Shown: one piece after another, positions 11,230-32,298 of the stretch | How positions within the stretch are numbered: position 1 is the stretch's first letter | How the letters are laid out: each line of letters begins with the position of its first letter | Notes under the pieces: model-generated | What the model saw: only the letters and a program-made list of their open reading frames with translations | Told to the model about the DNA's origin: nothing | Databases searched by the model: none | Source: Spirochaetia bacterium | Lineage (GTDB): Bacteria > Spirochaetota > Spirochaetia > DSM-16054 > Sediminispirochaetaceae | DNA: 64,000 bases | NCBI GenBank assembly: GCA_034520965.1 | Contig: JAXHMY010000001.1 | Location: 832,001-896,000, forward strand | Direction: 5' to 3' | Program-made: the position numbers and the translations under genes

Positions 11230-11322
11230 CTTTAACTTCCCGCGAGTACCCGAAGTTGGCGACCGACGGGAACCAATTTGGGCGAAGGCCGAATGGCCGT
11301 AGTCAGATACTCGCTGTTATCT
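11230..11322 (-). repeat. attC-like site (most distal)
   Basis: CTTTAAC...GCGAGTA/TACTCGC stem...GTTATCT. Confidence 0.85.
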
Positions 11323-11329
11323 GCTGTGC

Positions 11330-11589
11330 CTATTTTTTCCATTCTGCATAATGATCTGTGTATGTATCTAAAACTTTACGAATCATTTGTTGATATGGAA
11401 TATGTGTTTCTTCCGAGATTCGTTTGAAGAAATCAATGCTTTTTTTTGAAAGTGAGATGGTTACCTTCTTTGTCTCTTCTTTTGGTATTAACAACTCTGG
11501 TGGGGGAGTACATTTTCAATCTCGTTAGCTTCTAACAATGCTTCTCGTATGTCTTCCGGTGCCTCTTCATATTTAAAATTTTTCTTCAT
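11330..11589 (-). pseudogene. CopG/BrnA-like antitoxin, frameshifted in a C-run near 11500
   Basis: Hand translation: MKKNFKYEEAPEDI...KVTISLSKKSIDFFK...IPYQQMIRKVLD. Confidence 0.6.
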
Positions 11590-11843
11590 ACCGCTGTTTT
11601 CCTTCACGCCAATATCCGGCGCCAACCAATCTTATAGCATTCTTTCGTATTGTAAACCTTACAGTGACGATTCCAGATTCAATTTTCCCAATACAAAAGA
11701 ACCTATCTTCATCGATACTATGCTTTTTATCTTCTAAAATTATCCTTTTAGAATCTAAAAAAGCAAATTGTGCTTCTTCGAATGAGATATTGTGTTTCTC
11801 TTTGTTAAGTACATTCTTATTCTCATCCCATATAAAGGCTCAT
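11575..11843 (-). pseudogene. BrnT-family toxin, start out of frame by one base
   Basis: Hand translation: FIWDENKNVLNKEKHNISFEEA...DKKHSIDEDRF...RLVGAGYWR; coordinates approximate. Confidence 0.65.
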
Positions 11844-11894
11844 AGACATACACGACCTACTAACGACATTATATACAAGAAAATGGGCATTGCA

Positions 11895-11983
11895 GACAGA
11901 CGTCTGCGAGTACCCGGAGTTGGCGAATGCAGAATGTGCCGAAGGCCAAGGCCGAAGCTCGCCGCATATACGCCCTGTTATCG
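11895..11983 (-). repeat. attC-like site with degenerate crossover core
   Basis: Family body and GTTATCG end present, but CAGAC replaces TAAC. Confidence 0.7.
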
Positions 11984-11996
11984 GAAGTTTGGACGA

Positions 11997-12290
11997 TCAC
12001 GAGACTTTCATCCTTTGGATTCCACTCAATTCATCTCCAATTTTTGACCGCTCTTCTTCAAGATCATAATCATCTTGAAGCCCCAACCAGAATTGTGCAG
12101 AATTGCCAAAAAACTCAGAAAGCCTCAAGGCTGTATCTGCTGTTATTCTGCGTCGGCCTTGTAGTATCTGTGAAATTCGTGTTTGTGGTATTTTTATTTC
12201 TTTTGCTAACCTGTATGCAGTAATACCAAATGGTTCAAGAAATTCTTCCTGTAATATTTCTCCCGGGTGTATATTTCGTAACCTATCCAT
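11997..12290 (-). CDS. higA: HigA-family antitoxin
   Basis: HPGEILQEEFL, ITADTALRL, FWLGLQ. Confidence 0.9.
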   Translation of the reverse strand: MDRLRNIHPGEILQEEFLEPFGITAYRLAKEIKIPQTRISQILQGRRRITADTALRLSEFFGNSAQFWLGLQDDYDLEEERSKIGDELSGIQRMKVS

Positions 12291-12302
12291 AATTATCTCC
12301 TA

Positions 12303-12584
12303 TTAATGGTAATCCACAATTTCTACGTTCAATGCATTTCCATTTTGCCATTGAAAACATATCCTCCATTGTGAATTGATTCTAATGCTGTAAAGCCCTT
12401 CTCTGTCTCCTTTTAAGGATTCCAATCTATTATTGGGAGGAATCCTTAAATCATTAAGATCTTGTGCATTGTTCAACATTCTCAGTTTTTTTCTGGCTGG
12501 ATTTTGAATATCTATTGGTAGCTTCAATGATGTATTTCCATTCCAGATCTTTTCTGTTTCTTTAGATCTGAATCCGATGATCAT
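12303..12584 (-). CDS. higB: HigB (plasmid killer RelE-like) toxin
   Basis: LRIPPNNRLESLKGDREGLYSIRINSQWRICF...EIVDYH. Confidence 0.9.
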   Translation of the reverse strand: MIIGFRSKETEKIWNGNTSLKLPIDIQNPARKKLRMLNNAQDLNDLRIPPNNRLESLKGDREGLYSIRINSQWRICFQWQNGNALNVEIVDYH

Positions 12585-12591
12585 ACTTAGA

Positions 12592-12620
12592 ATACTAACG
12601 GCTTGTGATAGTATTGTCAA
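12592..12620 (-). promoter_or_regulatory. Sigma70-type promoter of higBA cassette
   Basis: TTGACA-N17-TAGTAT, 7 nt before ATG. Confidence 0.65.
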
Positions 12621-12658
12621 GTAATATTATCGTAATCATTGCTTCGTCCGAATTTCCG

Positions 12659-12749
12659 AAGTAACGTTTTGCCGTGTAGCCGAAAGTTGGCGACCAATGA
12701 GAGCCAATTTTGGCGGAGCATAGCGGAGGCCGGGTACTCGTTGTTATGT
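12659..12749 (-). repeat. attC-like site
   Basis: GTAAC...CGGGTACTCG...GTTATGT; vapC stop lies in the core. Confidence 0.85.
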
Positions 12750-13157
12750 GATGTTTGGCTCAACAATCCAGTTTTCAATTTTTATTTCCGGTACCCTTTC
12801 GAATTCCTTTACATTATTTGTAACTATGCAAAGGTCTCTTGAAATACATTGAGCTGCTATCTGTAGATCGTATGGACCTATTGGTGTTCCTTTTTTATTC
12901 AAATGAACCCTAAGAAATCCAAAATTTTCGCAATCCTTTTCTGAAAAAGGAATTATTTCAAAAGGAGTAAGAAACTCCAATAATGTATCTCTATTATTCT
13001 TTGGATAGAAGCTTTTGGCAATTCCATATTCCAGTTCTGCTACAGTAACTGCAGATATGGCAATATTAAAGGTGTCCTTTTCTAAAACTTTTTCAATTAA
13101 AGTAGGATACTTCTTTTTTATTAAGTAGATGCATATGTTGGTATCAAGAAGATACAT
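12744..13157 (-). CDS. vapC: VapC PIN-domain toxin
   Basis: YLLDTNICIY, IGPYDLQIAA, VTNNVKEF. Confidence 0.92.
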   Translation of the reverse strand: MYLLDTNICIYLIKKKYPTLIEKVLEKDTFNIAISAVTVAELEYGIAKSFYPKNNRDTLLEFLTPFEIIPFSEKDCENFGFLRVHLNKKGTPIGPYDLQIAAQCISRDLCIVTNNVKEFERVPEIKIENWIVEPNIT

Positions 13158-13387
13158 TAGAAAAAATCCCTTTCCTGCTGTTCCGGTTGTTCTCTTCCAT
13201 TTTTAAAAACATCATCAGAAAACTTATCCAGACTTTCTTCAAATGTTCTCCACAAGTCGTCTTTTGATGTGAGAATAATTGATTTGCCAACTTTTTGAAT
13301 ATATAGTTCTTTCTCATCAATAAAAAATTCTTTGGGTATACGTATAGCTTGGCTGTTTCCGCTTTTAAATACTTTAACCGTTTGCAT
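13157..13387 (-). CDS. vapB: VapB (AbrB-type) antitoxin
   Basis: KVFKSGNSQAIRIPKEF; GGAGG RBS. Confidence 0.9.
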   Translation of the reverse strand: MQTVKVFKSGNSQAIRIPKEFFIDEKELYIQKVGKSIILTSKDDLWRTFEESLDKFSDDVFKNGREQPEQQERDFF

Positions 13388-13446
13388 ATTGTCCTCCTTC
13401 ATAGAGGTATATACTTGTGTGTATACATTGTCAAGAGCCAAATATC

Positions 13447-13540
13447 ACGTAACGTTCCCGGGGTTTATGACATTTGCCCGCAGGGCAAATGTGCCAAAGG
13501 CCAAGGAGCGGTGCAACGCCGCATATACCCCGTGTTATTC
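13447..13540 (-). repeat. attC-like site (variant stem)
   Basis: ACGTAAC-GTTCC-CGGGGTTTATG...CATATACCCCG-T-GTTATTC. Confidence 0.85.
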
Positions 13541-13554
13541 GCTGTTTTTATTCT

Positions 13555-13836
13555 TTAGTATGCTTTGTCTCTTTGTTCCATGGACGTTATAGAAACTATT
13601 TGTATTGAGTCATCAATGATATAAAAAACTCGATAATCTCCTACCCGATAGCGCCAAGTTTCAGGAGACCAATTTCGAAGTTTTTTAATGTTTTTTCCAT
13701 AATACGGATTAACACGTAATTGGGGATAAACATAATTATGAATTTTCTGATATCTAGAATCAGTTTCCTTAATCCTGAGTCTCTTTAAATCCTTAAGGAA
13801 CTGATCAGTTTCAAAGATTTTAAATAAATCAGGCAA
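13555..13836 (-). CDS. RelE/ParE-family toxin (probable TTG start)
   Basis: IKKL...WRYRVGDYRVFY...RDKAY; overlaps antitoxin stop. Confidence 0.8.
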   Translation of the reverse strand: MPDLFKIFETDQFLKDLKRLRIKETDSRYQKIHNYVYPQLRVNPYYGKNIKKLRNWSPETWRYRVGDYRVFYIIDDSIQIVSITSMEQRDKAY

Positions 13837-14068
13837 ATCGGCCTCTACCTTTTGAGGCATCAATCGCACCTTGTTTTAAGCGATCAACCAATTCTGGGTT
13901 ACCTGAAATGCTTTCCATTTCGAATTCATCAACATAGTCAACTTCATCTATATATCGCTTGGTAGCAGTTTCGATGAAGTTTGAAATAGATCGATTTTCT
14001 GCTGCAGCATGAATCTTCAGAGATTGATATAATGTGTTATCTACCCTTAATGAAATAGTTTTAGACAT
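13829..14068 (-). CDS. Ribbon-helix-helix (CopG-like) antitoxin
   Basis: SKTISLRVD...AENRSISNFIE. Confidence 0.8.
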   Translation of the reverse strand: MSKTISLRVDNTLYQSLKIHAAAENRSISNFIETATKRYIDEVDYVDEFEMESISGNPELVDRLKQGAIDASKGRGRFA

Positions 14069-14147
14069 AGTTAACCTCCGTATACAATGTATTCTTATGT
14101 AATTAATTTAATTCAAAAAAGAAAAAAATGTCAAGAATAAAAATAAC

Positions 14148-14240
14148 GCATAACGTTTCGCGAGTACCCGAAGTTGGCGACCAACGGGAACCAATTTGGG
14201 CGAAGGCCGAATGGCCGGAGCCGGGTACTCGCTGTTATCG
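14148..14240 (-). repeat. attC-like site
   Basis: GCATAAC...GCGAGTACCCG/CGGGTACTCGC...GTTATCG. Confidence 0.9.
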
Positions 14241-14265
14241 GAAGGTTTTGGTGGTTCATTTCAAC

Positions 14266-14664
14266 TTACATAAGCGCTATCTTAATCTTCTTTCCTAAAG
14301 CCTTTGCTACTTTTTCTATTGTTGATAGTTTAATATCCTCCGAATGATTTTCCATCCTCGATATAACACTTTTTGTTGTATTAATTCTATTTGCTAACTC
14401 TTCACCGGATATTCCTTCATTTTTTATTCTTTTATCTACGTAATCATTGAGATTCATGTTTTTTCCTCCTAAAATAGTCTGTCTTATAAGTTTCAGCTTT
14501 TTTTATTTCATTTCGAGATGTCTTTTGTGTTTTCTTAATAATTCCAAGTGTTATTACAATCAGATTATTCTTAACCCAAAAACTGAACAACCTGTAAATG
14601 TTTGTATTAACCTTTATTCTTACTTCCCAAATTCCATCAGTTGATGCCAATTTCTTCTATTATT
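14266..14664 (-). pseudogene. Decayed copy of the Gp49-like toxin / HTH antitoxin cassette
   Basis: Near-identical to 19655-20165 but toxin 5' end lost and antitoxin has an 81-bp in-frame deletion. Confidence 0.85.
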
Positions 14665-14709
14665 GATTTGTTCTTTTCTGTGTGTTCTGTGCATTTCGTG
14701 GTTCTTTCT

Positions 14710-15315
14710 TCACAGCTCATCGGTCTTAAATTCGCTGTAGCCTTCATAGAAATAGCTGACATCGATGCCTTTCATAAACAGGGAGTGGTCATCAATCTGA
14801 TCGGTCAATGCGCTTTTTAACAGTTCTTTGATTTCCACATCTTTGACCGGACTGCGCTCCATGGCAGACAGGTATTCCTCTTTATCGACCTGGTTCCAGT
14901 CGATGACCTTCCGAATCTCTTTTTTCAGGATGAGATCTAACCAGATGCGGGTAGCGCGGCCGTTACCTTCCCGAAAGGGATGGGCAATGTTCATCTCGAC
15001 ATATTTTTCGATTATCTCATCAAAGTTGCTCTGCGGCATGGTCTCGATGTGTTTGAGCGAGTGTTCCAGATACATAATCGGCGCAAAACGGAAATTGCCT
15101 TTGGTGATATTCACGTCACGGATACTGCCGGCAAAATCATAAATCTCACCAAACAGATAGGTATGAATGAAGGCCAGTCCTTTAAAGGTGCCGACATTTA
15201 CTTGTTGAATGTCGCCCGACTCAAACAGTTGCTTGGCTTTTTGTTTGCTGATCTTTTCTTCGGCTTTGGCCAGCTCAATTTGATCGGTGATGCCCAGTTT
15301 GTTTTCCAGAATCAT
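14710..15315 (-). CDS. fic: Fic-family protein adenylyltransferase
   Basis: HPFREGNGR catalytic motif. Confidence 0.92.
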
Positions 15316-15411
15316 ATCTTACCTTTTTTTTTAACTACGGAATACACAGAATACACTAAAAGCTTTTTAATAAAACTCTTCTTCCGTGTTTTCAATGTGT
15401 TCTGTGGTTTA

Positions 15412-15663
15412 CTATTCTTCTTTCTCATGCGTCACCGCCTTTTTTACGGCTCTCTTTTTTGGCCTGTTTTCCAGTGCGGCGATGGTTTCAAGGTAGTCTT
15501 TTTCCACGTTTACCAGCGTTTTTCCTTTGGGAGTCTGAAAGAGCTTGACAATCTGACCCTGGGTCAGGTAGATGGGTTCGTTCTGCAGGATAGTGTCTAC
15601 TTTTATATCACCTTCAGGAGTTGTGTAGACGATTATTTGGTATTGTTTAGACTCTTTCTTCAT
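15412..15663 (-). pseudogene. Truncated RhuM-like protein
   Basis: N-terminus aligns with RhuM at 7292 (IKVDTILQNEPIYLTQGQ vs IKIDTVFQNETIWLTQAQ). Confidence 0.65.
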
Positions 15664-15698
15664 GCTATTTTTCTCCCATCATCTTGGTGCGGTATTGC

Positions 15699-15786
15699 CT
15701 ATAACGTTCCGCGTGTAGCCAAAGTTGGCGCCCAACGGGAGCCTATTTTGGCGGAGCATAGCGGAACCAGCTATTTGCTGTTATCG
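15699..15786 (-). repeat. attC-like site
   Basis: CTATAAC...AAGTTGGCG family body...GTTATCG. Confidence 0.85.
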
Positions 15787-15804
15787 GTAGTATTTTCAAT
15801 TCTG

Positions 15805-16023
15805 TTACGCTTCTTTAATAATATCCTCAAATGAATGGAATTTTACTTTTCCTTTACTTTCAAGGGTTTCATATTTTTTTATCTCTTCCCTGTCAATAAT
15901 ATCTTCATACATATCATTCAACGATGTTTTTATTACAGTTGATTTATCTTTTTCTAAATAGTCAGTCAGAAAGAAAAGCATCTTTTCCTCTTCTTCGGTT
16001 AGTCTTATTGATACAACACTCAT
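15805..16023 (-). CDS. Putative RHH antitoxin
   Basis: SVVSIRLTEEE; coupled to upstream RelE-like toxin. Confidence 0.7.
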   Translation of the reverse strand: MSVVSIRLTEEEEKMLFFLTDYLEKDKSTVIKTSLNDMYEDIIDREEIKKYETLESKGKVKFHSFEDIIKEA

Positions 16024-16280
16024 TTATACACATCCTCCCTCTTGGAGATTTTTACTACGATAATATCATCTTCCTGGAAATAAAATATTGCTCGATATTT
16101 TCCTTTCCTTAATCTAAAATACTCACGTAATTCTGATCCTTGCAATCTTTTAATATCAAATAGGGTCAAATCTTTTGTGAGTTCTAGTGATTGAAAAGCA
16201 TGGTGCATATGCTCAAATATGTGCTTTGGAATCAATCCTCTTTTATATGCTTTTAAAACAGCATTTTCATATTTGATCAT
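16020..16280 (-). CDS. RelE-family toxin
   Basis: DIKRLQG...YFRLRKGKYRAIF...REDVYK. Confidence 0.8.
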   Translation of the reverse strand: MIKYENAVLKAYKRGLIPKHIFEHMHHAFQSLELTKDLTLFDIKRLQGSELREYFRLRKGKYRAIFYFQEDDIIVVKISKREDVYK

Positions 16281-16334
16281 GTAAACATTGTAATACAAAG
16301 TGTGAGTTTTATCAAGAAATCTTGAAAATATTTC

Positions 16335-16427
16335 CGATAACGTTCCGCGGCTATGCGAAGTTGGCGACCAACGGGAGCCAATTTGGGCGGAGGCTGAAGG
16401 GCCGTAGCCGGGTACTCGCTGTTATGT
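16335..16427 (-). repeat. attC-like site
   Basis: CGATAAC...CGGGTACTCGCT GTTATGT. Confidence 0.9.
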
Positions 16428-16441
16428 GATGTATCGTGATA

Positions 16442-16735
16442 CTATGAAGCTTTAACATGTGGGATCTTCTCTAATTCCTGTGCTATATGCTTCTTTTCTT
16501 CGCGTAAATCATACTCATCTTGTATCCCGAGCCAAAAATCCGCTGAATTACCAAAGTACTTGGAAAAGCGTAGGGCCGTATCAGCGGTGATCCTGCGATT
16601 GCCTTTAATAATTTGTGATATCCTCGTTGCCGGGACATTCGTATCCTTTGCCAGCCTGTAAGCTGTTATATTCATTGGTTTAAGAAACTCTTCCAATAAA
16701 ATTTCTCCCGGTGTAATTGTTGGTATCTTTTCCAT
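16442..16735 (-). CDS. higA: HigA-family antitoxin
   Basis: PGEILLEEFL, ITADTALRF, FWLGIQ. Confidence 0.9.
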   Translation of the reverse strand: MEKIPTITPGEILLEEFLKPMNITAYRLAKDTNVPATRISQIIKGNRRITADTALRFSKYFGNSADFWLGIQDEYDLREEKKHIAQELEKIPHVKAS

Positions 16736-16749
16736 GCTTTTACCCTCAG

Positions 16750-17031
16750 TTAATGATAATCTGTAATCTCAACTTCACTTGCAGCTCCATTATTCCAGTT
16801 GAAGCAGATCCTCCATTGATTATTTATTCTAATACTATATTGTCCTTTCCTATTCCCTGCTAATTGCTCCAATCTATTGCCAGGAGGGACCCTCAAATCG
16901 TTTAAATCTTTTGCTCTGTGCAATACAATCAGCTTCCTTAATGCAACTTTTTGCATTTCTTTGGGAAATCTCTTTGAATAGATTTCTTCCCATATTTTTT
17001 CGGTAGCCTTATCTTTGAATGATTCGATCAC
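16750..17031 (-). CDS. higB: HigB toxin (GTG start)
   Basis: LRVPPGNRLEQLAGNRKGQYSIRINNQWRICF...DYH. Confidence 0.9.
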   Translation of the reverse strand: MIESFKDKATEKIWEEIYSKRFPKEMQKVALRKLIVLHRAKDLNDLRVPPGNRLEQLAGNRKGQYSIRINNQWRICFNWNNGAASEVEITDYH

Positions 17032-17096
17032 AACTTATATTAACCTATAACGTTAATAATGTAAAACGTTAATATTTCTTTCTATCTCGATATATA

Positions 17097-17189
17097 ACAT
17101 AACGTCCCGCGAGTACCCGAAGTTGGCGAACAACGGGAGCCAATTTGAGCGGAGGCCGAAGGGCCGTAGCCGGGTACTCGCTGTTAAGC
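17097..17189 (-). repeat. attC-like site
   Basis: ACATAAC GTCCC GCGAGTACCCG...CGGGTACTCGC T GTTAAGC. Confidence 0.92.
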
Positions 17190-17249
17190 GACGGGCCAAG
17201 CTCATCTATATATGTATCTACATTGCCGCACTCTTCATTAAAGACATTA

Positions 17250-18113: not shown

Positions 18114-18203
18114 GCCTAACGTTACAGAAATATACGAAGTCCGGCTACGCCGCATTTGCCGAAGGCCAAGCCCGTAGGGCGCAGCGCATATTTCTTGTTA
18201 TAA
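18114..18203 (-). repeat. attC-like site (variant stem)
   Basis: GCCTAAC-GTTAC-AGAAATAT...ATATTTCT-T-GTTATAA. Confidence 0.85.
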
Positions 18204-18768: not shown

Positions 18769-18822
18769 GTAGACTCCTGTTGTCCATATTATACTAGAAA
18801 ATTTCAAAAAAGGTAATATGTC

Positions 18823-18840
18823 GTATAACTCCCATTAAAT
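18823..18840 (-). repeat. Collapsed 18-bp attC / attI-like junction
   Basis: GTATAAC-TCCC-ATTAAAT; no hairpin body. Confidence 0.6.
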
Positions 18841-18957
18841 GTAGTGCCAGGCATTCTTCTCAGCTCTCCCTAAAGTACACGGATGTACTTTAGGGAATTC
18901 CTTTTCAGCATTTTAAAACTATTAAACGAATATTTTCTGCCAAGTGTAATCCGGGCG

Positions 18958-19404
18958 CTAGACATGTTTTGCTACCTCGTTTTCTACATAGTGCTTAAAT
19001 TCTTTGTTCATATTCTGATATCCAACTGCAGTTTTTGTTATCATTTTTTGCATTAAAAGAATGATAGGGCCTTTAAATTTCTCTATCTGCCGAAATCTTG
19101 TAACCTTATCATCAATATATTCTAGTAAAAACTCATGCATTCCGTTATAGACGAATACCAAGAAGCTACCTCCCCATGATATTCTTTTATTTTGCTCTAT
19201 CTCGTAAATTTTAGGTTTAAAAAACATTTCCTTCATGCCGGGAGACACAACTTTTATAATCATTTTATTTCCAACTTTAAATTCACCTTGAACCATTGGT
19301 ATAAATGAATTCCAGTTCTCCCATGATTTAAAATCGATAAGCATATCCCACACTTCTGATATGGAGGCATTAATATTTATCCAAGAATTTAATTCCCTAT
19401 ACAA
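18958..19404 (-). CDS. SRPBCC/START-fold protein
   Basis: IWINASISEVWDMLIDFKSWENWNSFI, GMHEF, QIEKFKG. Confidence 0.85.
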   Translation of the reverse strand: MYRELNSWININASISEVWDMLIDFKSWENWNSFIPMVQGEFKVGNKMIIKVVSPGMKEMFFKPKIYEIEQNKRISWGGSFLVFVYNGMHEFLLEYIDDKVTRFRQIEKFKGPIILLMQKMITKTAVGYQNMNKEFKHYVENEVAKHV

Positions 19405-19536: not shown

Positions 19537-19629
19537 ATTTAACGTCTCGCGAGTACGGAAGTTGGCGACCAACGGGAGCCAATTTAGGCGAAGGCGCTTG
19601 TCGCCGGAGCCGGGTACTCGCTGTTATCG
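19537..19629 (-). repeat. attC-like site
   Basis: ATTTAAC...family body...GTTATCG. Confidence 0.9.
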
Positions 19630-19654
19630 GAAGGTTTTGGTGGTTCATTTCAAC

Positions 19655-19927
19655 TTACATAAGCGCTATCTTAATCTTCTTTCCCAAAGCCTTTGCTACT
19701 TTTTCTATTGTTGATAGTTTGATATCCTCCGAATGATTTTCCATCCTCGATATGACACTTTTTGTTGTATTAATCCTATTTGCTAACTCTTCTTGTGTTA
19801 ACCCGTTTCTTTCTCTTGCTTCTTTTAAGAAAATCCCGATTTTATAATCCTCATAACCTTCCCAAAACTCTTCACCGGATATTCCTTCATTTTTTATTCT
19901 TTTATCTACGTAATCATTGAGGTTCAT
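19655..19927 (-). CDS. XRE-type HTH antitoxin
   Basis: LKEARERNGLTQEELA...SVISRMEN. Confidence 0.88.
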   Translation of the reverse strand: MNLNDYVDKRIKNEGISGEEFWEGYEDYKIGIFLKEARERNGLTQEELANRINTTKSVISRMENHSEDIKLSTIEKVAKALGKKIKIALM

Positions 19928-20276
19928 GTTTTTTCCTCCTAAAATAGTCTGTCTTATAAGTTTCAGCTTTCTTAATTTCATTTCGAGATGTCTTTTGTGT
20001 TTTCTTAATAATTCCATGTGTTATTACAATCAGATTATTCTTATCCCAAAAACTGAATAACCTGTAAATGTTTGTTCCAACCTTTATTCTTACTTCCCAA
20101 ATTCCATTAGTTGATGCCAACTTCTTGAAATAAGTTTTTGGTACAAAATCCATTTCTTCTATTATCTTTAATGTCCATGCAATCTTCTTCACTACACCCA
20201 TCTCGAGGCTATCAAGAAATTCCTCAACAGGACATTTTCCTTTATCAGTTGTATAGAAGATCACTTCTCTATGCAT
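19914..20276 (-). CDS. Gp49-like (DUF891) RelE-superfamily toxin
   Basis: GKCPVEEFL, IWEVRI, HGIIKKTQKT. Confidence 0.88.
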   Translation of the reverse strand: MHREVIFYTTDKGKCPVEEFLDSLEMGVVKKIAWTLKIIEEMDFVPKTYFKKLASTNGIWEVRIKVGTNIYRLFSFWDKNNLIVITHGIIKKTQKTSRNEIKKAETYKTDYFRRKKHEPQ

Positions 20277-20283
20277 AAGAGCA

Positions 20284-20303
20284 TGTTAGCATGCGTGCTA
20301 ACA
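20284..20303. promoter_or_regulatory. Palindromic operator overlapping TA promoter
   Basis: TGTTAGCA-N4-TGCTAACA within TTGAAT-N17-TAACAT; same at about 30790-30809. Confidence 0.65.
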
Positions 20304-20346
20304 ATATTCAAGACATTATTTTAAGCTATTTCCTACCAAAACTTTC

Positions 20347-20482
20347 AGATAACGTCCCGCAAGTACCCGAAGTTGTCCGACCACTTGCTCCGCAAGTGGC
20401 TTGCCATAAAATCTGAGATTTTATGGTCGGGCAATTTGGGCGGAGGCGCTTGTCGCCGGAGCCGGGGTACTCGCTGTTATGC
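20347..20482 (-). repeat. Long attC-like site with two extra internal hairpins
   Basis: AGATAAC...CCACTTGC/GCAAGTGG and CCATAAAATC/GATTTTATGG...GTTATGC. Confidence 0.88.
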
Positions 20483-22399: not shown

Positions 22400-22493
22400 G
22401 CCTAACGTCCCGCAAGTACTCGAAGTTGGCGACCAGCGGAAGCCAATTTGGGCGGAGGCGCTTGTCGCCGCAGCCGGGTACTCGTTGTTATAC
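22400..22493 (-). repeat. attC-like site
   Basis: GCCTAAC...family body...GTTATAC. Confidence 0.9.
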
Positions 22494-23353: not shown

Positions 23354-23447
23354 GTATAACGTTCCGCGAGTACCCGAAGTTGGCGACCAAGGGGAGTCAA
23401 TTTGGGCGGAGGCGCTTGTCGCTGTAGCCGGGTACTCGCTGTTATGG
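23354..23447 (-). repeat. attC-like site
   Basis: GTATAAC...family body...GTTATGG. Confidence 0.9.
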
Positions 23448-24107: not shown

Positions 24108-25804
24108 AAGCAATTCGAAATGTGAGAAAGCATCGAGAGGGAAGTAACTCTAATATCTCTAACTAGACATTTTATCCTTACTATAGTATAGTGTCCGTAT
24201 GGGAGGGGCCGGATACAGCTTTGCTGTACTGTTACAATTTTTAGAGGACTCAATTACGACATTCCCGGATGTACGCAAAGGGAAGAACACCGTATATGAA
24301 GTACGCGATGCGGTACTATCGGCCTTTTCGATGTTCTTCATGCAATGCCCCTCCTTCCTTGCTCATCAGAGAGCGATGGGCATGAGGAAAGGGAAGAACA
24401 ATGCCGAAAGCATATTCGGTGTTCACAAGATTCCAACTGACACCCATATTCGAAATCTGCTCGATCCAATACCGCCGGAGCTACTATTCCCGGTCTTTGA
24501 CAAGGTCTATGAGTTTCTCCTCACTGAAGGGGTTATCAAGGAGATGATTACCCACGATAATTTACTGTTGATTGCCCTTGATGGGACCTGGTTTTTTTCC
24601 TCCGAGCAGCTCTTCTGTCCCTCCTGCCAAACCAAAACACATAAAAGTGGAAGCGTAACCCATTACCACAGTGCCATTACCCCGGTCATTGTCAGACCAG
24701 GGGTAAACTATGTGGTCGGTCTTCCCTCGGAATATATTACCGTCAATGATGGTGCTACGAAACAGGACTGTGAAAACAAGGCGGTGAAACGGTGGATAGA
24801 GACAATTGGGAGAAAGTACCTGTCGGAACAGCACACTGTTGTACTGTTAGGCGATGATCTGTACAGCAGGCAGCCGGTATGTGAGCACACCATGGCCTCC
24901 GGCTGCAGCTTTATCTATGTATGTAAAACAGCATCACACAAGTATTTATACGAGTGGATCGATGAGTTCACCGCCGAGGATCTGCACGAAAGTTACAAAC
25001 GCATATGGGATGGCAAGAGGCGGCTGACCTATCGCTACCGGTACCGCAACGATGTCCCTCTCAAAGACGGTGATGAGTCGCTGAAGGTAAACTGGATGGA
25101 ACTAACCATCCTGAGCGAAGAGGGGCAGCTGATTAAGCACTTCTCCTTTGTTACCGACATTCCCGTAACTGATACAAATATCGAGGATATGATCTCTTAC
25201 GGTTGAAGCCGGTGGAAGATAGAAAACGGAAACAACAACATTCTCAAGACAAAGGGCTACCATCTGGAACATAACTTTGGCCATGGGGATAAGCATTTAT
25301 CGAACTTCCTGATGACCTTGAACCTTCTTTCCTTCCTCTTTCATACCACTGCCGGGTTGTTCGACAGACGATATATACTACTTCGCAAAACCCTGCCGAG
25401 CCGTCAGACATTCTTTCATGATGCTCAGGCGTTAACCAAATATTTCTTCTATGAAAGTTGGGAGCATCTTCTCAAAACGATGATCATTGGCCTGGAACTC
25501 GAAGACCCGGGCGGATGACCGGTCAACCAAATCCACGCTCTTTTTTGATGTAGAAAGCTCTCCTCACCATCATTCACTCTCAATCTCTCCTCTTTCTACC
25601 TAAAGCTGAGCTCACTGAATTATTTCCCTGAATATGAACTGAACAGAGTTTTAAAGATGATGGAATGTGAGCTTTTCACCATTCACACACTGTGTGAGCT
25701 CTTCAATTTTGGTGCAGGGATTAGCCTCTCCCAACCGCTGTAAAGAAATAAGCCTAGCTGTATCACAGCCTTTACCCGAAATTATGTCACTTTTCGCATT
25801 GCTG
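24108..25804 (+). mobile_element. IS element (ISNCY/IS4-superfamily-like)
   Basis: 9-bp target duplication GATTTAGCA (24099-24107, 25805-25813); imperfect terminal IRs AGCAATTCGAAATGTGA / AGCAATGCGAAAAGTGA. Confidence 0.88.
24199..25518 (+). pseudogene. DDE transposase with in-frame TGA at 25204
   Basis: IALDGT, KQDCE, LGDDLY, G*SRWKIEN; frame continues to 25518. Confidence 0.85.
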
Positions 25805-25821
25805 GATTTAGCAGAAATTTC

Positions 25822-25915
25822 CGATAACGTCCCGCGAGTACCCGAAGTTGGCGACAGACGGGAGCCAATTTGGGCGAAGGCGCTTGTCGCCGCAGCCGGG
25901 TACTTGCTGTTATGT
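25822..25915 (-). repeat. attC-like site
   Basis: CGATAAC...family body...GTTATGT. Confidence 0.9.
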
Positions 25916-25935
25916 GAAGAAGCCTTTTCCTCTAA

Positions 25936-26349: not shown

Positions 26350-26406
26350 ATTAGCTCCTATAAAAAGTCAATCACAAGCTTTCCAGAAAGCTCATAATTT
26401 AGCCGG

Positions 26407-27524
26407 CTATCCGGCCTTTGCGGCATCACATGCTGCCGCCTGCATTTTCAAATACTTTTGAGAGTGCTCCATCCTTAGTGGATCGAAGGACTCTCTGTTT
26501 TTTAGCATCATGTAGATAACCGGTACTCAATTTCCGTGCTGTAGCTATTATGCTCTTCCCGCTACCTTTGTGTTTCTTCATATACTCATAGCGGGTCATA
26601 ACTCTGTACCCGCCGGTTTGTTCTTTTATTTCTGACCATTCCCAATACGCATTGCACCATTGCCGTTCTTATTTCCCTTCGGTCCCCGTTTGGTTATATG
26701 CCCGTGATGGGATCATCTCGTTCTGAGTTCTGTACCCACGGTGCCAGGCCCATATGAGCAGCGAACTTCTTCGGGCTCTCATAACGGTCAATATCATCAA
26801 TAAAAGCCCTCAGTGTAGCAGCAGTTATCAACCCAACTCCGGGAATCGTCTGCAACAACTCTACATCTTTGTCCTCAGCAACCATGCTCTCAAGCACCTT
26901 CTCCAGCTTCTTGACCTGTGCACTAAACTGGTCTAAAGTATCGAAGAGCGGCTTGACCGCTTCGGCAGCGCTTCCGTAAACCTTATGGTCCACGAGACCG
27001 GAAAGGATGCGCTGCCTCTCTTTTTTACTCTGCAGCTGTCCTCTCTTCGTCTCGATCCCATAGCCGAGCAGCATACCGTGAATCTGGTTCTTTATTCCAA
27101 CCAACGCTTTCACCGCTATCGACCTCGTTTTCAATACTCTTCGGATATCCTCACTCGTTTGACTGCACAGCCTCGATTCAGGAAGCATATCCTTCTCCAA
27201 AAACTCCGCAAGTGTTCGTGCATCGTGCTTGTCCGTCTTCTTGACCGACTCGTTGACCACCTTGAACTTCAAGGTGTTTACCACCGTCACTTCAATTCCG
27301 GCACTCAGCAGCCGGTTGCGGAAATAACGGGCGTTACCGGTTGACTCAACCGCCGCATGCACCTCATACCCTGCCTCTACGTACTCGCTACATTTACTGA
27401 GGAACTCTTCATATCCGATTTCTTTTGTCGGATAGATTCCCGTTTCCACTGCTTTCCGGTTTTCCGCCAGAAAACAGACAGTGAATTGGCTCTTGTGCAG
27501 ATCCACTCCAATACTCATCTTCAT
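26407..27524 (-). pseudogene. IS110 DEDD recombinase, several frameshifts in the 3' third
   Basis: IGVDLHK, VESTG, KTDKHDA, TIPGVG, GLAP, ITKRGP, ATARKL motifs. Confidence 0.88.
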
Positions 27525-27741
27525 CGCTTCTCTCCTGTTCTGTTCAAAACAGCTCCGGTTTGGTGAATTGATTCCATTCTCCTATTCGGTCTCGTAGACC
27601 ATTGAATGCTTCGGTTACGGCTCTTCATTCTCCTCTGACGGTTGTAGACCAATAAAAATGCCGAACAGTAACCTGCTGTCTCAAACTAAGTTTGCGACAG
27701 TATATCAATCCACAAAGCTTATGAAGACCTTTTTATCATTC
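27525..27741 (-). ncRNA. Candidate IS110 bridge RNA
   Basis: About 215-nt non-coding end with a 5' hairpin and 7-nt matches to the target flank (AGAGGAG) and the donor flank (ATAGGAG). Confidence 0.55.
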
Positions 27742-27926
27742 CTCCTCTCTATTCCGGCTTGTTTGAGAATTCTCTTTGCTAATCCGATTGGAATCTCTTT
27801 CTTCCCGTGAACTGGTATAGGTATAGATCTTCTCCCTTCCTTGATCATTATATGATGGCTACCAGATATTCTATCTAATACCCAGCCATGGTCTTTTAAT
27901 AATTTTATTAAATCTTTTCCTGTCAT
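27705..27926 (-). CDS. hicA: HicA toxin (C-terminus extended into the IS110)
   Basis: GWVLDRISGSHHIM...PVHGKKEIPIG. Confidence 0.88.
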   Translation of the reverse strand: MTGKDLIKLLKDHGWVLDRISGSHHIMIKEGRRSIPIPVHGKKEIPIGLAKRILKQAGIERRNDKKVFISFVD

Positions 27927-28044
27927 TTTAGATAATTATACAACCTTTATGTTGTATAGTCAATTTTATTAATTTTCTTTTCGAAGGTTTTTTGCGGTAG
28001 TAACCAATTTCCTAATCAAAACTCATATTCTTTAAGGCTTTTTC

Positions 28045-28127
28045 ACATAACGGGGCGGCGGGTATCCGCAGTGGCCAGGTAAAGCCGGAGGCTTGTACGG
28101 GCCATTGAGGATACCCGCCAGTTGTCT
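28045..28127 (-). repeat. attC-like site (variant stem)
   Basis: ACATAAC-GGGGC-GGCGGGTATCC...GGATACCCGCC-A-GTTGTCT. Confidence 0.85.
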
Positions 28128-28208
28128 GAAGTTGCGGAGCAACGGAAGACAGCTGGCGGGCTTGCCCGCCGCTCCGTTCTACAAAAGTGCGAAGCAATTT
28201 TGGACAAC
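28121..28208. other. ORF-less structured mini-cassette
   Basis: 88 bp between two repeats; ends GTTGTC/GACAAC complementary; internal GGCGGGC/GCCCGCC hairpin. Confidence 0.7.
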
Positions 28209-28289
28209 GTTCCGCGAATAGACGAAGTTGGCGACCAACGGGAGCCAATTTGGGCAGAGCGAAGCGTAGCCGGGTACTCGCTGTTATAT
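28202..28289 (-). repeat. attC-like site
   Basis: GGACAAC...family body...GTTATAT. Confidence 0.88.
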
Positions 28290-28513
28290 GACGTTTCGGG
28301 GGCGTTCTTAGACATACTATTTTACTTTGTCTCTGGGAAAAATTGATTTTTATTTCCACAGTTTAGACATACCCCCCTATGAACACATAACAGATTACCA
28401 CACCACCTGGATCAATTAGCATCTTTTTATTCTTAGATTTAATTAAAAATGTATTGTATCCAAAAAATGTTATTTCCATTCTTCACTCTTGCCATATATT
28501 TGGGGGCAATTGC
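28290..28513 (-). pseudogene. Chimeric cassette: 5' stub of an MBL-fold-like gene fused to the 3' end of the DUF3795 cassette
   Basis: MEITFFGYNTFLIKSKNKKMLIDPGG from 28479; 28283-28402 identical to 32292-32411. Confidence 0.75.
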
Positions 28514-28648
28514 ACATAACGTCCCGCAAGTACCCGAAGTTGTCCGACCACTTGCTCCGCAAGTGGCTTGCCATAAAATCTGAGATTTTATGGTCGGGCA
28601 ATTTGGGCGGAGGCGCTTGTCGCCGGAGCCGGGTACTCGCTGTTATGC
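28514..28648 (-). repeat. Long attC-like site (copy of 20347-20482)
   Basis: Same two internal hairpins. Confidence 0.88.
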
Positions 28649-28897
28649 GATGAATTGTGAAGCGTCAACAGAACTTTCTTTATAAAGAATTTCGGGATCT
28701 AAATCTGCTCCGTTTGGCCATTCAATTGTATCGAATTTTACTGATACTGCATTAAATATTGAAACATCCCGTAATTCCGAAAAGATACCGAAATCAAGAT
28801 AGGGGGAAACATCAAAATACCGTTTCTCATCATTCTTAAAGATAAGTAACAATTTGTAATCTGAAAGAGGTTTTACATCTTTAACACCCAAATACAT
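28643..28897 (-). CDS. DUF2442-domain protein (putative antitoxin)
   Basis: VKDVKPLSDYKLLLIF...IEWPNGADLDPE. Confidence 0.85.
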   Translation of the reverse strand: MYLGVKDVKPLSDYKLLLIFKNDEKRYFDVSPYLDFGIFSELRDVSIFNAVSVKFDTIEWPNGADLDPEILYKESSVDASQFIA

Positions 28898-28907
28898 AAA
28901 ATCCTCC

Positions 28908-29174
28908 TTATTGTAATGGATCAATTTTGTAGGGTGATTCACCATTTTGGGCTAATTGCCAATCAGCAAGTAGTTCATCTTTATGTAATTCTGCCCAAGC
29001 TTCTATAAGCTTTATTTGTCGTTTCGGTAGATTGCCTTCAGTCATTTCGCAAATGTTAATATCAAAGATTCCTTTGAAATCCTGATAATATGCATGGAAG
29101 TGAGGAGGGTTATGCTCCTTCTTTCCCAGCTACATTCTAATGACAATTCCAAAAAACATTGAAATAGTAGGCAT
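28908..29174 (-). pseudogene. DUF4160-domain protein with one in-frame TAG
   Basis: MPTISMFFGIVIRM*LGKKEHNPPHFHA...WAELHKDELLADW...IDPLQ. Confidence 0.8.
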
Positions 29175-29229
29175 AGCCTATATTATATCATCTCCTTCCA
29201 TTATAGTCTATTTTGCTTCACAATTTGTC

Positions 29230-29323
29230 GCATAACGTCCCCGGGGTATAAGACGTTTGCCCGCAGGGCAAATGTGCTAAAGGCCAAAGAGCGGAGCGAC
29301 GCCGCATATACCCCATGTTAGAC
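29230..29323 (-). repeat. attC-like site (variant stem, related to 13447)
   Basis: GCATAAC...GGGGTATA/TATACCCC...GTTAGAC. Confidence 0.85.
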
Positions 29324-29372
29324 GATGTCACGAACCTTCTTCAAAGCCAAGCAACATGGATGTTGTTTGGCT

Positions 29373-29696
29373 TTATTCTATTAACATTTCTTGCAGCACA
29401 CTTTTGACGAGTTCAATTTCTTTTTTATTTATTTTCCCAATTTTCTTAATCAATCTTTTCCTATCAACCGTCCTCAATTGATCTAAGACTATCCATCCAT
29501 TTTTTTTTTCAAATTGAAGAGGAACACGTGTTGGATATTTATATGATTTCGTTGTCATCGGGGCTATTATGATTGTCTGGATTGATTCATTCATCTCATT
29601 TGGAGAGATTACCAAGCAGGGGCTTGTCTTTTTTATTTCATGGCCAACAGTTGGATCTAAGTTAATTAAATACACTTCATATTGTTGTATTACCAT
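29373..29696 (-). CDS. mazF: PemK/MazF-family toxin
   Basis: LDPTVGHEIKKTSPCLVISP, APMTT, LDQLRTVDRKRL. Confidence 0.9.
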   Translation of the reverse strand: MVIQQYEVYLINLDPTVGHEIKKTSPCLVISPNEMNESIQTIIIAPMTTKSYKYPTRVPLQFEKKNGWIVLDQLRTVDRKRLIKKIGKINKKEIELVKSVLQEMLIE

Positions 29697-29938
29697 TCCC
29701 ATTCAAAATCGTCCTGCTCATTTAGATTGTCCAGAAATAATGAATCATCACCATTCTTGTGCATCTTCATAAACTCTTCGGGCCATCCTTCTCTTGGCTT
29801 TTTCTTTATTGGTCGAATCAGAATTTCCGTATTATGCACTTCCAACTCTACTTTCTCTTCAATGTTTAATTGTTGTAAAATACTCTTTGGAATCCTAATT
29901 CCTTTTGAATTGCCTATAGGAACCACTGAAACTAACAT
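29690..29938 (-). CDS. mazE: AbrB/MazE-family antitoxin
   Basis: IGNSKGIRIPK, PREGW. Confidence 0.88.
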   Translation of the reverse strand: MLVSVVPIGNSKGIRIPKSILQQLNIEEKVELEVHNTEILIRPIKKKPREGWPEEFMKMHKNGDDSLFLDNLNEQDDFEWEW

Positions 29939-30041
29939 ATTACACCTCAACTAATGTAATTATATAGTAGTTACGTAATTTCGTCAATCTTTTGCTTGCT
30001 AAGGATTGCAAGCTTCTTCTTTCTCTTAGGTTCGTGATTTC

Positions 30042-30135
30042 GTCTAACGTCCCGCGAGTAGCCGAAGTTGACGACCAACGGGAGCCAATTTGGGCGAAGG
30101 CGCTTGTCGCCGGAGCCGGGTACTCGCTGTTATCT
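30042..30135 (-). repeat. attC-like site
   Basis: GTCTAAC...family body...GTTATCT. Confidence 0.9.
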
Positions 30136-30160
30136 GGAGGTTTTGGTGGTTCATTTCAAC

Positions 30161-30433
30161 TTACATAAGCGCTATCTTAATCTTCTTTCCTAAAGCCTTT
30201 GCTACTTTTTCTATTGTTGATAGTTTAATATCTTCCGAATGATTTTCCATCCTCGATATGACACTTTTTGTTGTATTAATCCTATTTGCTAACTCTTCTT
30301 GTGTTAACCCACTTCTTTCTCTTGCTTCTTTTAAGAAAATCCCGATTTTGTAATCCTCATAACCTTCCCAAAACTCTTCACCGGATATTCCTTCATTTCT
30401 TATTCTTTTATCTACGTAATCATTGAGGTCCAT
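30161..30433 (-). CDS. XRE-type HTH antitoxin (copy)
   Basis: Near-identical to 19655-19927. Confidence 0.88.
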   Translation of the reverse strand: MDLNDYVDKRIRNEGISGEEFWEGYEDYKIGIFLKEARERSGLTQEELANRINTTKSVISRMENHSEDIKLSTIEKVAKALGKKIKIALM

Positions 30434-30782
30434 GTTTTTTCCTCCTAAAATAGTCTGTCTTATAAGTTTCAGCTTTTTTAATTTCATTTCGAGATGCCTT
30501 TTGTGTTTTCTTAATAATTCCATGTGTTATTACAATCAGATTATTCTTATCCCAAAAACTGAACAACCTGTAAATGTTTGTTCCAACCTTTATTCTTACT
30601 TCCCAAATTCCATCAGTTGATGCCAACTTCTTGAAATAGGTTTTTGGTACAAAATCCATTTCTTCTATTATCTTTAATGTCCATGCAATCTTCTTCACTA
30701 CACCCATCTCAAGGCTATCAAGAAATTCCTCAACAGGACATTTTCCTTTATCAGTTGTGTAGAAGATCACTTCTCTATGCAT
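30420..30782 (-). CDS. Gp49-like RelE-superfamily toxin (copy)
   Basis: Near-identical to 19914-20276. Confidence 0.88.
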   Translation of the reverse strand: MHREVIFYTTDKGKCPVEEFLDSLEMGVVKKIAWTLKIIEEMDFVPKTYFKKLASTDGIWEVRIKVGTNIYRLFSFWDKNNLIVITHGIIKKTQKASRNEIKKAETYKTDYFRRKKHGPQ

Positions 30783-30852
30783 AAGAGAATGTTAGCATGC
30801 GTGCTAACAATATTCAAGACATTATTTTAAGCTATTTCCTACCAAAACTTTC

Positions 30853-30945
30853 AGATAACGGGCGCGGCTATATGAAGTTTTTGCGTAACGCAGTAAAGCA
30901 AAAATTTGGGTGTTGCGAAGCGTAACCATATAGCTGCTGTTAGCG
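30853..30945 (-). repeat. attC-like site (variant stem)
   Basis: AGATAAC-GGGC-GCGGCTATATG...CATATAGCTGC-T-GTTAGCG. Confidence 0.85.
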
Positions 30946-31014
30946 GCAGTTTTTTCTCTTGACCAATATTTTCACATCTTATTCCAAAAATTGATTTTAT
31001 GCAGATAGATAATT

Positions 31015-32151
31015 CTAATACATAGCTTTTAGAATTTCAGGAATGACCCGATAAGGAACTGCTCCAGCACTTGTTTCATCCACACTACCGCAAAGATACA
31101 GGTCGAGTTGTGGACACCAAAATAGCCAGCAGCCGGTTGAACCAGTGTGCCCGATAACTTCTGGTAACTTCTTCATAGAGGTAAAAATCCTAGGTAGCTG
31201 GAAACGCATCAGTCCCAATCCGTATTCAATAGGCCAACCAGGAGAGCGCAATGAAGCACGGTCTAGAGGTAGCCCAAATCGATTCCAATTATTCTGCATA
31301 ATGTTAAATGTGTCTTTCTTATTAAAAACTTGATTCTGTATTAATTTACGCAAAAAAGCAATCATATCGCGTGTAGTGCTGTAAATGCCTCTAAAAGATT
31401 TCATCAGTTTTGGGATTTGAACAATCTGCCCACCAGCGCGCAGTGGTATTGGCAGCTGAGTTAAGACAAGGGGTTGTGAAAACCCAGGGAAATAGGTGTT
31501 TTTAAGTGACAATGGTTTATAGAGCATGTTTTCGTGAACAATGTGCAATGGCGCATTACAAATCGCTTCAATTAGAGCAATAATGAGGATGTAATTTGTA
31601 TCAGAATAACGCACTTTGATCTTTCGACCTGACGGATTTTGTGGCGGGAAATGCGGTTTTAACTTAATACGGACTATTTCCGCAATGTCTATAAAAGAAA
31701 AAGCCATATCACCTTGTGTCAAGATTTGTTCAACGACGCTTTTACCACCCTTTGGAGAATCTTCTAACCAATCGCCCAGACCAGAGGTGTGCGAAAGGAG
31801 GTGTCGGATTGTAATTTTTTTTGAATAGTCGATTCCCTTGTAAGTGTGCAGTCTATGAAAAAGTTCAGATGGCAAGTAGTCTGAAATAGGGTCGTCCAAA
31901 TTTAACTTGCCCTGCTCACTTAATAACATAATAATGGTAGCGTTAAAAATTTTATCTATACTGGCGATGAAGAAGGGAGAATTAGCATTTACTTGCACAT
32001 CATCTTGATTTATTTCTCCTGCTATACCTGTCCATTGAAAAGATCGATCACTGTTCTCCACAGTCAAAATGGCCTGTTTGATATTTTTTTTTAAAACTAG
32101 GTTATTTAGTACCATTTGGAATGAGTTATTATCAATATTCTTCATTGCCAT
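31015..32151 (-). CDS. Serine hydrolase, beta-lactamase/class C-like family
   Basis: SIDK (SxxK), LLSHTSG, YSDTNY, GHTG. Confidence 0.88.
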   Translation of the reverse strand: MAMKNIDNNSFQMVLNNLVLKKNIKQAILTVENSDRSFQWTGIAGEINQDDVQVNANSPFFIASIDKIFNATIIMLLSEQGKLNLDDPISDYLPSELFHRLHTYKGIDYSKKITIRHLLSHTSGLGDWLEDSPKGGKSVVEQILTQGDMAFSFIDIAEIVRIKLKPHFPPQNPSGRKIKVRYSDTNYILIIALIEAICNAPLHIVHENMLYKPLSLKNTYFPGFSQPLVLTQLPIPLRAGGQIVQIPKLMKSFRGIYSTTRDMIAFLRKLIQNQVFNKKDTFNIMQNNWNRFGLPLDRASLRSPGWPIEYGLGLMRFQLPRIFTSMKKLPEVIGHTGSTGCWLFWCPQLDLYLCGSVDETSAGAVPYRVIPEILKAMY

Positions 32152-32210
32152 TTGCTTTACTCCTCAAATATGCTCATATATTTACGTCTCTTACTGGGAA
32201 AATAAATTGC

Positions 32211-32298
32211 CGCTAACGTTCTGCGAGTACCCGAAGTTGGCGAACAACGGGAGCCAATTTGGGCGGAGCGAAGCGTAGCCGGGTACTCGCTGTTATAT
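32211..32298 (-). repeat. attC-like site (first cassette)
   Basis: CGCTAAC...GCGAGTACCCG/CGGGTACTCGC...GTTATAT. Confidence 0.9.

Follow-up and report, generated by a model that had tools for sequence, protein, structure and literature searches.

Can gene cassettes be captured by an integron that lacks both the integrase insertion and the attC fold by which integrons are defined? The question is raised by a 64,000-nucleotide stretch of the genome of a Spirochaetia bacterium (GenBank assembly GCA_034520965.1, contig JAXHMY010000001.1, positions 832,001 to 896,000; here called the window), in which 21 attC-like sites lie between positions 11230 and 32298, beside a gene coding for a tyrosine recombinase without I2, the insertion specific to integron integrases (IntI). 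Guanine-plus-cytosine content falls to 0.32-0.45 across 11230-32800, and this region is occupied by short genes on the minus strand, many of which form toxin-antitoxin pairs. The cassettes point one way, each spanning one G/TT core to the next, and the 357-residue recombinase is co-oriented with them and reads towards the array (Table 1). Because the cassette genes are on the minus strand, the plus strand is the 'bottom' strand in integron terms. With a probability of about 0.7, we regard these as the sites at which cassettes recombine in a sedentary integron from a lineage sister to the classical integrons. That the array is a variant of the integron is well supported; it departs from the definition in two features, I2 and the classical attC, and the two departures match each other.

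The original prediction, made from the sequence of the window, described a TAAC-N5-stem...stem-N1-GTT geometry, and 19 of the 21 sites have it (5/1, after the two gaps), the others being a 4/1 site (30857) and a 6/1 site (12663). The AAC and GTT cores are both present in 20/21 sites, the exception being the 5/1 site at 11899, which has GAC. At 5/1, 157 of 210 stem positions form Watson-Crick pairs and 14 of 21 sites have at least 8/10 pairs; with nine other left gaps, 25-69 of 210 positions are paired and at most one site reaches 8/10. The four unrelated stems said to keep this spacing do so, with 10/11 pairs at 13451 and at 18118, 11/11 at 28049, and 10/11 at 30857 in its 4/1 register. The spacer is less uniform than claimed: GTCCC, supposedly present in most sites, occurs in just 7 of the 19, and another 5 have GTTCC. 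Six sites have degenerate or mismatched arms with fewer than 8/10 pairs, and several combine the arms of two stem types, which may reflect decay or recombination between repeats. The proposed branching of the apex into two hairpins holds in part: with the R box and stem forced, at least two hairpins form in 20/21 sites and AAGTTG/CAATTT is present in 14/21, but the GGCG..CGCC hairpin occurs in only 6/21.

The gap itself can be explained by the bases that border the cores. On the gene strand, 90 of 103 sites from loci with related recombinases (family sites) have A after AAC and C before GTT, which form an A·C mismatch on the top strand and a G·T wobble on the bottom, so the 5/1 gap consists of one wobble and a 4-nt one-sided bulge in the 5' arm of the bottom strand. 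The bottom-strand fold includes an R box of up to 10 bp, the G·T wobble, a 3-4-nt bulge and an unbroken stem of 10-11 bp, and it ends in a branched apex; the stem contains a degenerate L box and has no extrahelical base. The L box is placed by a C conserved 16 nt before GTT in the 1/5 and 1/4 site classes, with attI having a C 13 nt before GTT in 59% of 27; aligning the conserved C with the C of the R'' consensus gives the spacers L'-N8-R' and R''-N4(5)-L'', compared with N5 in attI. The site code is R''-N4-L'' / L'-N8-R', as against N5 / N5-6 in classical sites, and the bulge could absorb the surplus of the L'-R' spacer.

A difference between strands appears when both are folded with DNA energies: in the window, 14 of 21 sites close the R box when the bottom strand is folded and one does so when the top strand is, and in the family sites (end bases set to consensus) the corresponding figures are 50/103 and 1/103, an asymmetry that partly reflects an energy model permitting G·T and not A·C. 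GNA mini-loops number 52 on the bottom and 3 on the top strand in the family, and 20 and 5, respectively, in the window. Free-fold energies reach z <= -2 in only 12 of 21 bottom strands.

Conservation of the geometry by covariation, as originally proposed, is limited in the window, where about five stem types are present, but has strong evidence from other genomes. Among the best 80 of 566 confirmed matches in a scan of genome contigs, we defined 79 family loci, which span Spirochaetota, Bacteroidota, Ignavibacteriota, Bacillota, WOR-3, Atribacteria and several archaeal groups; many of their contigs stop just behind the recombinase gene, so many loci are uninformative. Near these 79 homologues, hairpins with a gene-strand offset of -4 number 68 in 280 kb downstream compared with 5 in 556 kb upstream, those with an offset of -3 number 39 and 3, respectively, and offsets of +3/+4 are barely enriched. 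Eighty-six sites in 27 loci were chosen by R-box letters alone, with a letter pattern derived from a stem-selected set; 46 pair at 1/5, 17 at 1/4, and none scores 6/7 or more on the classical template. Two-sided changes are present at all 11 of 11 stem pairs (32 sites, 22 loci; score 0.67, compared with 0.15 shuffled and 0.07-0.13 slid), and since the rows were picked for pairing, the evidence is the variety of pair types and not the 94.6% of positions paired. Bulge length varies among sites (1/5, 1/4 and 3/6). In 100 sampled Spirochaetota genomes, bulge-type sites are found in 13 of 28 with the enzyme family and 9 of 72 without it; related genomes in this sample are not independent, and scoring was limited to 38 candidates in each.

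Several of these loci have features of their own. Locus L157 (G226:C2:375500-395400), from another family of Spirochaetota, has at least 15 sites of 171-178 nt, of the 3/6 sub-type and about 1 kb apart, behind a family enzyme. Plasmids of Chryseobacterium, Fulvitalea and Rufibacter (L119, L120 and L123) carry family enzymes followed by rows of short genes with variant sites (2/5, 3/6), and in L119 each site is followed by a perfect 140-nt hairpin. The bulge-type array of L030 includes the 5' part of a group II intron (13754-14010).

The cassette borders record how the array was assembled. The 8 nt after GTT and the 8 nt before the next AAC, compared in all 21 cassettes including two that are badly registered, are complementary at 111 of 168 positions (permutation mean 79.9, maximum 99 in 20,000 permutations), and the two ends of one site match at only 70. 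Cassette ends of the relatives are complementary at 306 of 424 positions, compared with 253 when permuted (maximum 286 in 10,000). This complementarity of the two ends indicates that the cassettes were circles when inserted; position 8 matches in 0 of 21 cassettes and so adds another G·T to the excised circle's bottom strand. In an 824-nt duplicated cassette the identity ends just after AAC, where the neighbours differ, and copies of DUF2442 start there. Contigs of other strains have loose ends and joints at site borders, which, with short sides and repeat similarity, are no proof of shuffling.

The first cassette has its partner end at 32799-32809, 40 nt beyond the recombinase stop codon, and this is the putative attI. 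At the family loci, a GTT motif behind the gene fits its own first cassette at 9/10 or better in 23 of 32 (shuffled mean 1.9), and in most loci about 75-150 nt separate the I2-less gene from the attI behind it. The attI and attC sites have only the GTT core in common, with unrelated spacers (A in one and C in the other before GTT). We note that the attI regions of L018, L025, L043, L045 and L047 contain an extra inverted repeat upstream of the L box, possibly an accessory binding site, and that an attI-like junction without a hairpin is present in mid-array in the window (18819-18960); it may be what is left of a second platform, or a site of secondary insertion.

How far these sites depart from classical attC is evident from templates and covariance models of both kinds. 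On a template of classical spacers and extrahelical bases, all 21 window sites score 1-3/7, and sites beside I2-positive spirochaetal integrases score 7. The classical covariance model is a proxy for IntegronFinder's own, built from 24 sites beside I2-positive integrases, seven of them class 1; it finds 0 of the 21 window sites (unfiltered, four reach 7.7-10.8 bits) and no site in 394 kb from 25 I2-less loci, and detects sites of 33-88 bits in another five classical loci. Conversely, a new bulge-type model, built without the window, finds 19 of the 21 sites, all on the minus strand, and no site in 11 classical loci. The proposal of a different substrate code is thus sustained for attC-like junctions that fall outside the classical template (0/21), in a refined form: the spacing is a wobble with a 4-nt bulge, and a degenerate L box is retained. 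The proposed match between geometry and I2-less recombinase also holds, as such sites go with such enzymes across phyla. Rfam covariance models have no match over the window sites or the sites of nine related loci; Flavo-1 was considered as an identity for the sites and discarded, its one match, in L073, being a different element.

The same genome provides its own control. Contig C3 (G000:C3:40625-81000; L162-L164) carries a classical integron, whose I2-positive IntI is frameshifted within the I2 region and divergent from 21 attC sites of about 135 nt. These score 7/7 (17 sites) or 6/7 (4 sites) on the classical template and 2-3/9 on the bulge template. A strict template scan of the genome overlooked this array, which the classical covariance model recognizes. 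Since one of the sites used to train that model belongs to the C3 repeat family, independent evidence comes from the template score. The bulge-type model, even unfiltered, finds no site in the C3 array, and blastn finds no cassette common to the two arrays. Four more classical sites are on other contigs (C8:1329-2819, C9:286322 and C2:425968). None of ten other array-bearing genomes, all drafts, has a TIGR02249 match over the cut-off.

The window recombinase scores 155 bits against TIGR02249 (cut-off 265), and both segments of the IntI-specific insertion are absent from its alignment with IntI1. The spacing from KGxKxR to HxLRH is 59 residues, within the 58-63 of I2-less enzymes and compared with 100 in classical ones, and the catalytic R, K, HxxR, H and Y residues are all present in the family alignment. 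A consensus match to a sigma-70-type promoter lies upstream (33974-33946), and the neighbors are the attI and array on one side and a RidA-family gene, with no adjacent IS91 transposase. The nearest named relative is from an uncultured Sediminispirochaeta, and some relatives are labeled 'site-specific tyrosine recombinase/integron integrase' in RefSeq, so annotators may have noticed the integron link. In a fast IQ-TREE with Xer as outgroup (44 rows picked from 109, SH-type support only), I2-positive IntI form one clade (Shimodaira-Hasegawa-like approximate likelihood-ratio test, SH-aLRT, 100), a second clade (92.5) combines the array enzymes that lack I2 with two IS91-type or array-less rows, and the two unite against Xer at 99.8. 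L089 groups with the I2-positive clade at 87 in FastTree and not in fast IQ-TREE, and with SH-type support only the order of events in either tree is tentative. The array enzyme is outside the Xer clade, and the genome's own two Xer genes are on contig C8.

At its N terminus, the enzyme has 65 residues that resemble the HARP domain of SMARCAL1. PF07443 is found in 19 of 60 members (best E 5e-4, for a row below the cut-off), the best match among Protein Data Bank profiles is 4o66 (E 0.0022), and the predicted model is beta-beta-alpha-beta-beta-alpha; 36 of the top 150 representatives have two to four copies. HARP binds DNA junctions, a property on which a literature search retrieved no paper. 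Full-length fold searches are dominated by the recombinase domains and uninformative on this domain, and a search of the ESM Atlas with residues 1-70 gives only unnamed clusters at 0.89, a lead at best. We considered the domain as a substitute for I2 and rejected it, as I2-positive Treponema-type IntIs carry it too and locus L135, where the divergently oriented enzyme has neither I2 nor the HARP-like domain, yet has the same site type.

The cassette logic and the fold are read from the sequence itself, and from them we infer the enzyme's activity, its use of single strands and the role of the bulge. The I2-less recombinase would bind the folded bottom strand at R and L and cut at AAC. One strand exchange would join the bottom strand to double-stranded attI and replication would resolve the product, as with IntI; a single exchange is suggested because the attI and attC spacers are unrelated outside the GTT core. 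The bulge would take up the surplus of the 8-nt L'-R' spacer, leaving the protomers about as far apart as on attI with its 5-nt spacer, and the deformed overlap region could mark the arm to be cut and block a second exchange, the job of I2 and the extrahelical bases in IntI. Strand choice, which the original prediction tentatively assigned to the one-sided bulge, probably comes from the bulge side, the wobble and the GNA loops together, as the wobble and the loops also favor the bottom strand.

The last of these points has a competitor, in which the integron is single-stranded, the bulge is a spacer only, and strand choice comes from the G·T wobble, the GNA mini-loops or the HARP-like domain. 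This is possible, if somewhat unlikely: the bases beside the cores in 90/103 family sites, the 52 to 3 distribution of GNA loops and the varying bulge length (1/5, 1/4, 3/6) all agree with it, and several unpaired features are described as jointly setting strand choice in IntI sites (passages of PMC5027507), but the extra bases consistently fall on one arm (offsets -4 and -3 are enriched, +3/+4 barely) and the HARP-less enzyme of L135 has the same sites. A further departure is to have the I2-less enzyme move cassettes in the manner of Xer, through two exchanges on double-stranded or fully paired CTX-like sites, the hairpin having another purpose such as transcript structure. The absence of I2 is shared with Xer and IS91-linked recombinases, and the R box, of about 10-11 bp with a fixed consensus, has the length of an Xer arm. 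In the prevailing view, single-strand recombination and I2 are found only together, in integron integrases, and the innovation was made possible by I2, but PMC7790495 concedes that even for IntI direct proof of I2 as the cause is lacking. We nonetheless consider an Xer-like route improbable, since the stem letters vary freely while pairing is kept, the two cassette ends co-vary, which a double-stranded core site does not need, the unrelated attI and attC spacers should hinder a second exchange, and folding favors the non-coding strand.

Least probable, and in our view very doubtful, is that a classical IntI uses the sites in trans as ordinary substrates, as in clusters of attC sites lacking integron-integrases (CALIN), with the I2-less recombinase a bystander. 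The R boxes of the two site types are similar, an I2-positive IntI is on contig C3 of the same genome, and, frameshifted as it is, it could once have acted in trans. Against this, attI lies close behind the I2-less gene in most loci, the arrays are downstream of that gene and not upstream, the ten draft array genomes have no IntI over the cut-off, and the two site types do not mix (bulge-type sites 0 in 11 classical loci and the C3 array, classical sites 0 in 25 I2-less loci). Our preferred reading, a sister lineage of integrons with its own recombinase, nevertheless has to accommodate several adverse observations besides that IntI gene and the contribution of the energy model to the strand bias. 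IntI1 tolerates loss of extrahelical bases in some sites (part of PMC5027507), so that they are dispensable in some of its substrates, and a classical attC is nested in the apex of a bulge-type site of the L135 array (7187-7446). The I2-less clade also includes IS91-linked recombinases without an array, and 9 of the 22 Spirochaetota genomes with bulge-type sites had no family match at E<=1e-70. The window enzyme has a 12-residue in-frame deletion near residue 192 (window 33339-33346, at an 8-nt overlap), where residues are kept in all 13 homologues shown alongside; a contig of a probable source sample crosses the deletion unchanged, and another study's contigs carry 36 more bases. The window's copy of the enzyme, and the platform with it, may no longer be active; the degenerate sites and the inserted transposases are consistent with this.

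The features of the array are collected in Table 1.

Table 1. Recombinase, attI and cassette recombination sites of the array, in window coordinates, from the recombinase to the far end.
Feature	Position	Strand	Remarks
Tyrosine recombinase, 357 aa	32849..33922	-	HARP-like N-terminal, SAM_4 core-binding and catalytic domain without I2
Putative attI	32799..32830	-	Crossover core GTT at 32809-32807 (-); 7/8 nt complementary to far end of first cassette
attC 1, bulge-type, 5/1	32211..32298	-	11/11 pairs; closes DUF3795 cassette 32331-32744
attC, 4/1 variant	30853..30945	-	Unrelated stem; closes beta-lactamase-fold (serine hydrolase family) cassette 31015-32151
attC	30042..30135	-	Gp49/helix-turn-helix (HTH) toxin-antitoxin cassette; second copy at 19537-20354
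attC, CGGGGT-type stem	29230..29323	-	MazEF-like cassette
attC, long three-hairpin type	28514..28648	-	DUF2442-type cassette (copy at 20347)
attC, mismatched arms	28202..28289	-	Closes truncated copy of first cassette
attC, unrelated stem	28045..28127	-	11/11 pairs; GTTG core; not detected by family model
attC	25822..25915	-	HicAB-like cassette split by IS110-family transposase (26694-27524)
attC	23354..23447	-	11/11; HicAB cassette, then transposase-like open reading frame 24199-25206 (+), no Pfam match
attC	22400..22493	-	Alpha/beta hydrolase cassette
attC, long type	20347..20482	-	DUF2442 gene and two membrane-protein genes
attC	19537..19629	-	Gp49/HTH cassette copy
attI-like junction within array	18819..18835	-	9 nt after core are those of putative attI; no hairpin
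attC, unrelated A/T-rich stem	18114..18203	-	DUF2442 cassette
attC	17097..17189	-	11/11; methyltransferase cassette
attC, mismatched arms	16335..16427	-	HigBA cassette
Degenerate attC	15699..15786	-	DUF6290 antitoxin-type cassette
attC	14148..14240	-	11/11; partial Gp49/HTH copy, Fic gene, RhuM-like fragment
attC, CGGGGT-type stem	13447..13540	-	ParE/ribbon-helix-helix cassette
attC, 6/1 register, degenerate	12659..12749	-	VapBC cassette
Degenerate attC, mismatched arms	11895..11983	-	GAC core; HigBA cassette; not detected by family model
Last attC of array	11230..11322	-	Then type I restriction-modification operon (-)

Some of the cassettes, and one candidate cassette, deserve mention. The type I restriction-modification operon (3774-11231; hsdM, YhcG/DUF1016, hsdS, a RhuM-family gene and hsdR) starts directly behind the last core, is flanked by a 15-bp inverted repeat, and has a leader that recurs before the RhuM-like fragment at 15685. 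The operon may represent a cassette of 7.5 kb whose site has decayed. A gene-free cassette of 83 nt, itself a hairpin, lies between two sites at 28123-28206. The VapBC cassette at 12744-13441 is closely related to one in locus L135 (5234-5883), hinting at a pool common to the arrays of two spirochaete families.

With little more than even confidence, we propose more broadly that this is a second widespread class of integron, sister to IntI, which recombines folded single-stranded DNA without I2 by means of a one-sided bulge, is missed by classical attC and IntI models, operates alongside classical integrons within one cell with no exchange of cassettes, and is present in Bacillota, Bacteroidota, Spirochaetota and Archaea. 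If so, single-strand cassette capture predates or is independent of I2. The relationship between the two becomes directly testable in an I2-less family that occurs naturally and has folded sites of its own. The integron census would also change, as lineages reported to be integron-free carry such arrays, some of them on plasmids, and a large cassette pool is hence unseen by standard tools. The window genome is an internal control, with both kinds of integron side by side and unmixed, and the new kind may offer a second structure-specific recombination system, orthogonal to IntI1.

Our literature search, with most subscription journals outside its coverage, found no description of such arrays, although several known systems resemble them in part. 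Cury 2016 (PMC4889954) reports, in the sections available, no complete integron in Firmicutes, where the bulge-type system is present, as it is in Bacteroidota and Archaea; the same sections class recombinases near attC without the IntI domain as 'not IntI', and the accompanying tree of 21 such recombinases could bear on novelty. Relatives of IntI without I2 have been described as a sequence group, the 'integron-like' tyrosine recombinases, including IS91/IS3-linked ones, and of three IS91-type or array-less rows in our tree, two share a clade with the window enzyme; the available portions of the two sources (bioRxiv 10.1101/542381, PMC8138268) give no cassette arrays, attI or site structure for I2-less members, and two IS91-type loci that we examined have no sites and no HARP-like domain, unlike the window. 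The DUF1874 motif, in the excerpts available of PMC5737381, is likewise branched and covarying, lies in consecutive intergenic regions and was proposed as a possible unusual attC, but no integrase was seen for it there and the window sites have no Rfam match. The reverse-oriented spirochaetal integrons of the Treponema denticola type share the co-orientation of integrase and cassettes (parts of PMC3607928 and PMC9668308), and the HARP-like N-terminal domain is also present at 7 of 25 spirochaetal IntI loci searched (L094-L100), but those integrases keep I2 and their sites are classical (L124 has five sites at 7/7 and none of the bulge type). The differences from the classical integrons of IntI1 and VchIntIA are the absence of I2 and of an extrahelical base in L, spacers of N4-5 / N8 instead of N5 / N5-6, and a longer R-box complementarity. 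The likenesses are co-oriented cassettes rich in toxin-antitoxin genes, the AAC/GTT core, the G/TT crossover, a computed bias to bottom-strand folding, and an attI with a 5-nt spacer adjoining the recombinase, and the classical integron structure 2A3V is the top Foldseek match of an intact homologue of the window enzyme.

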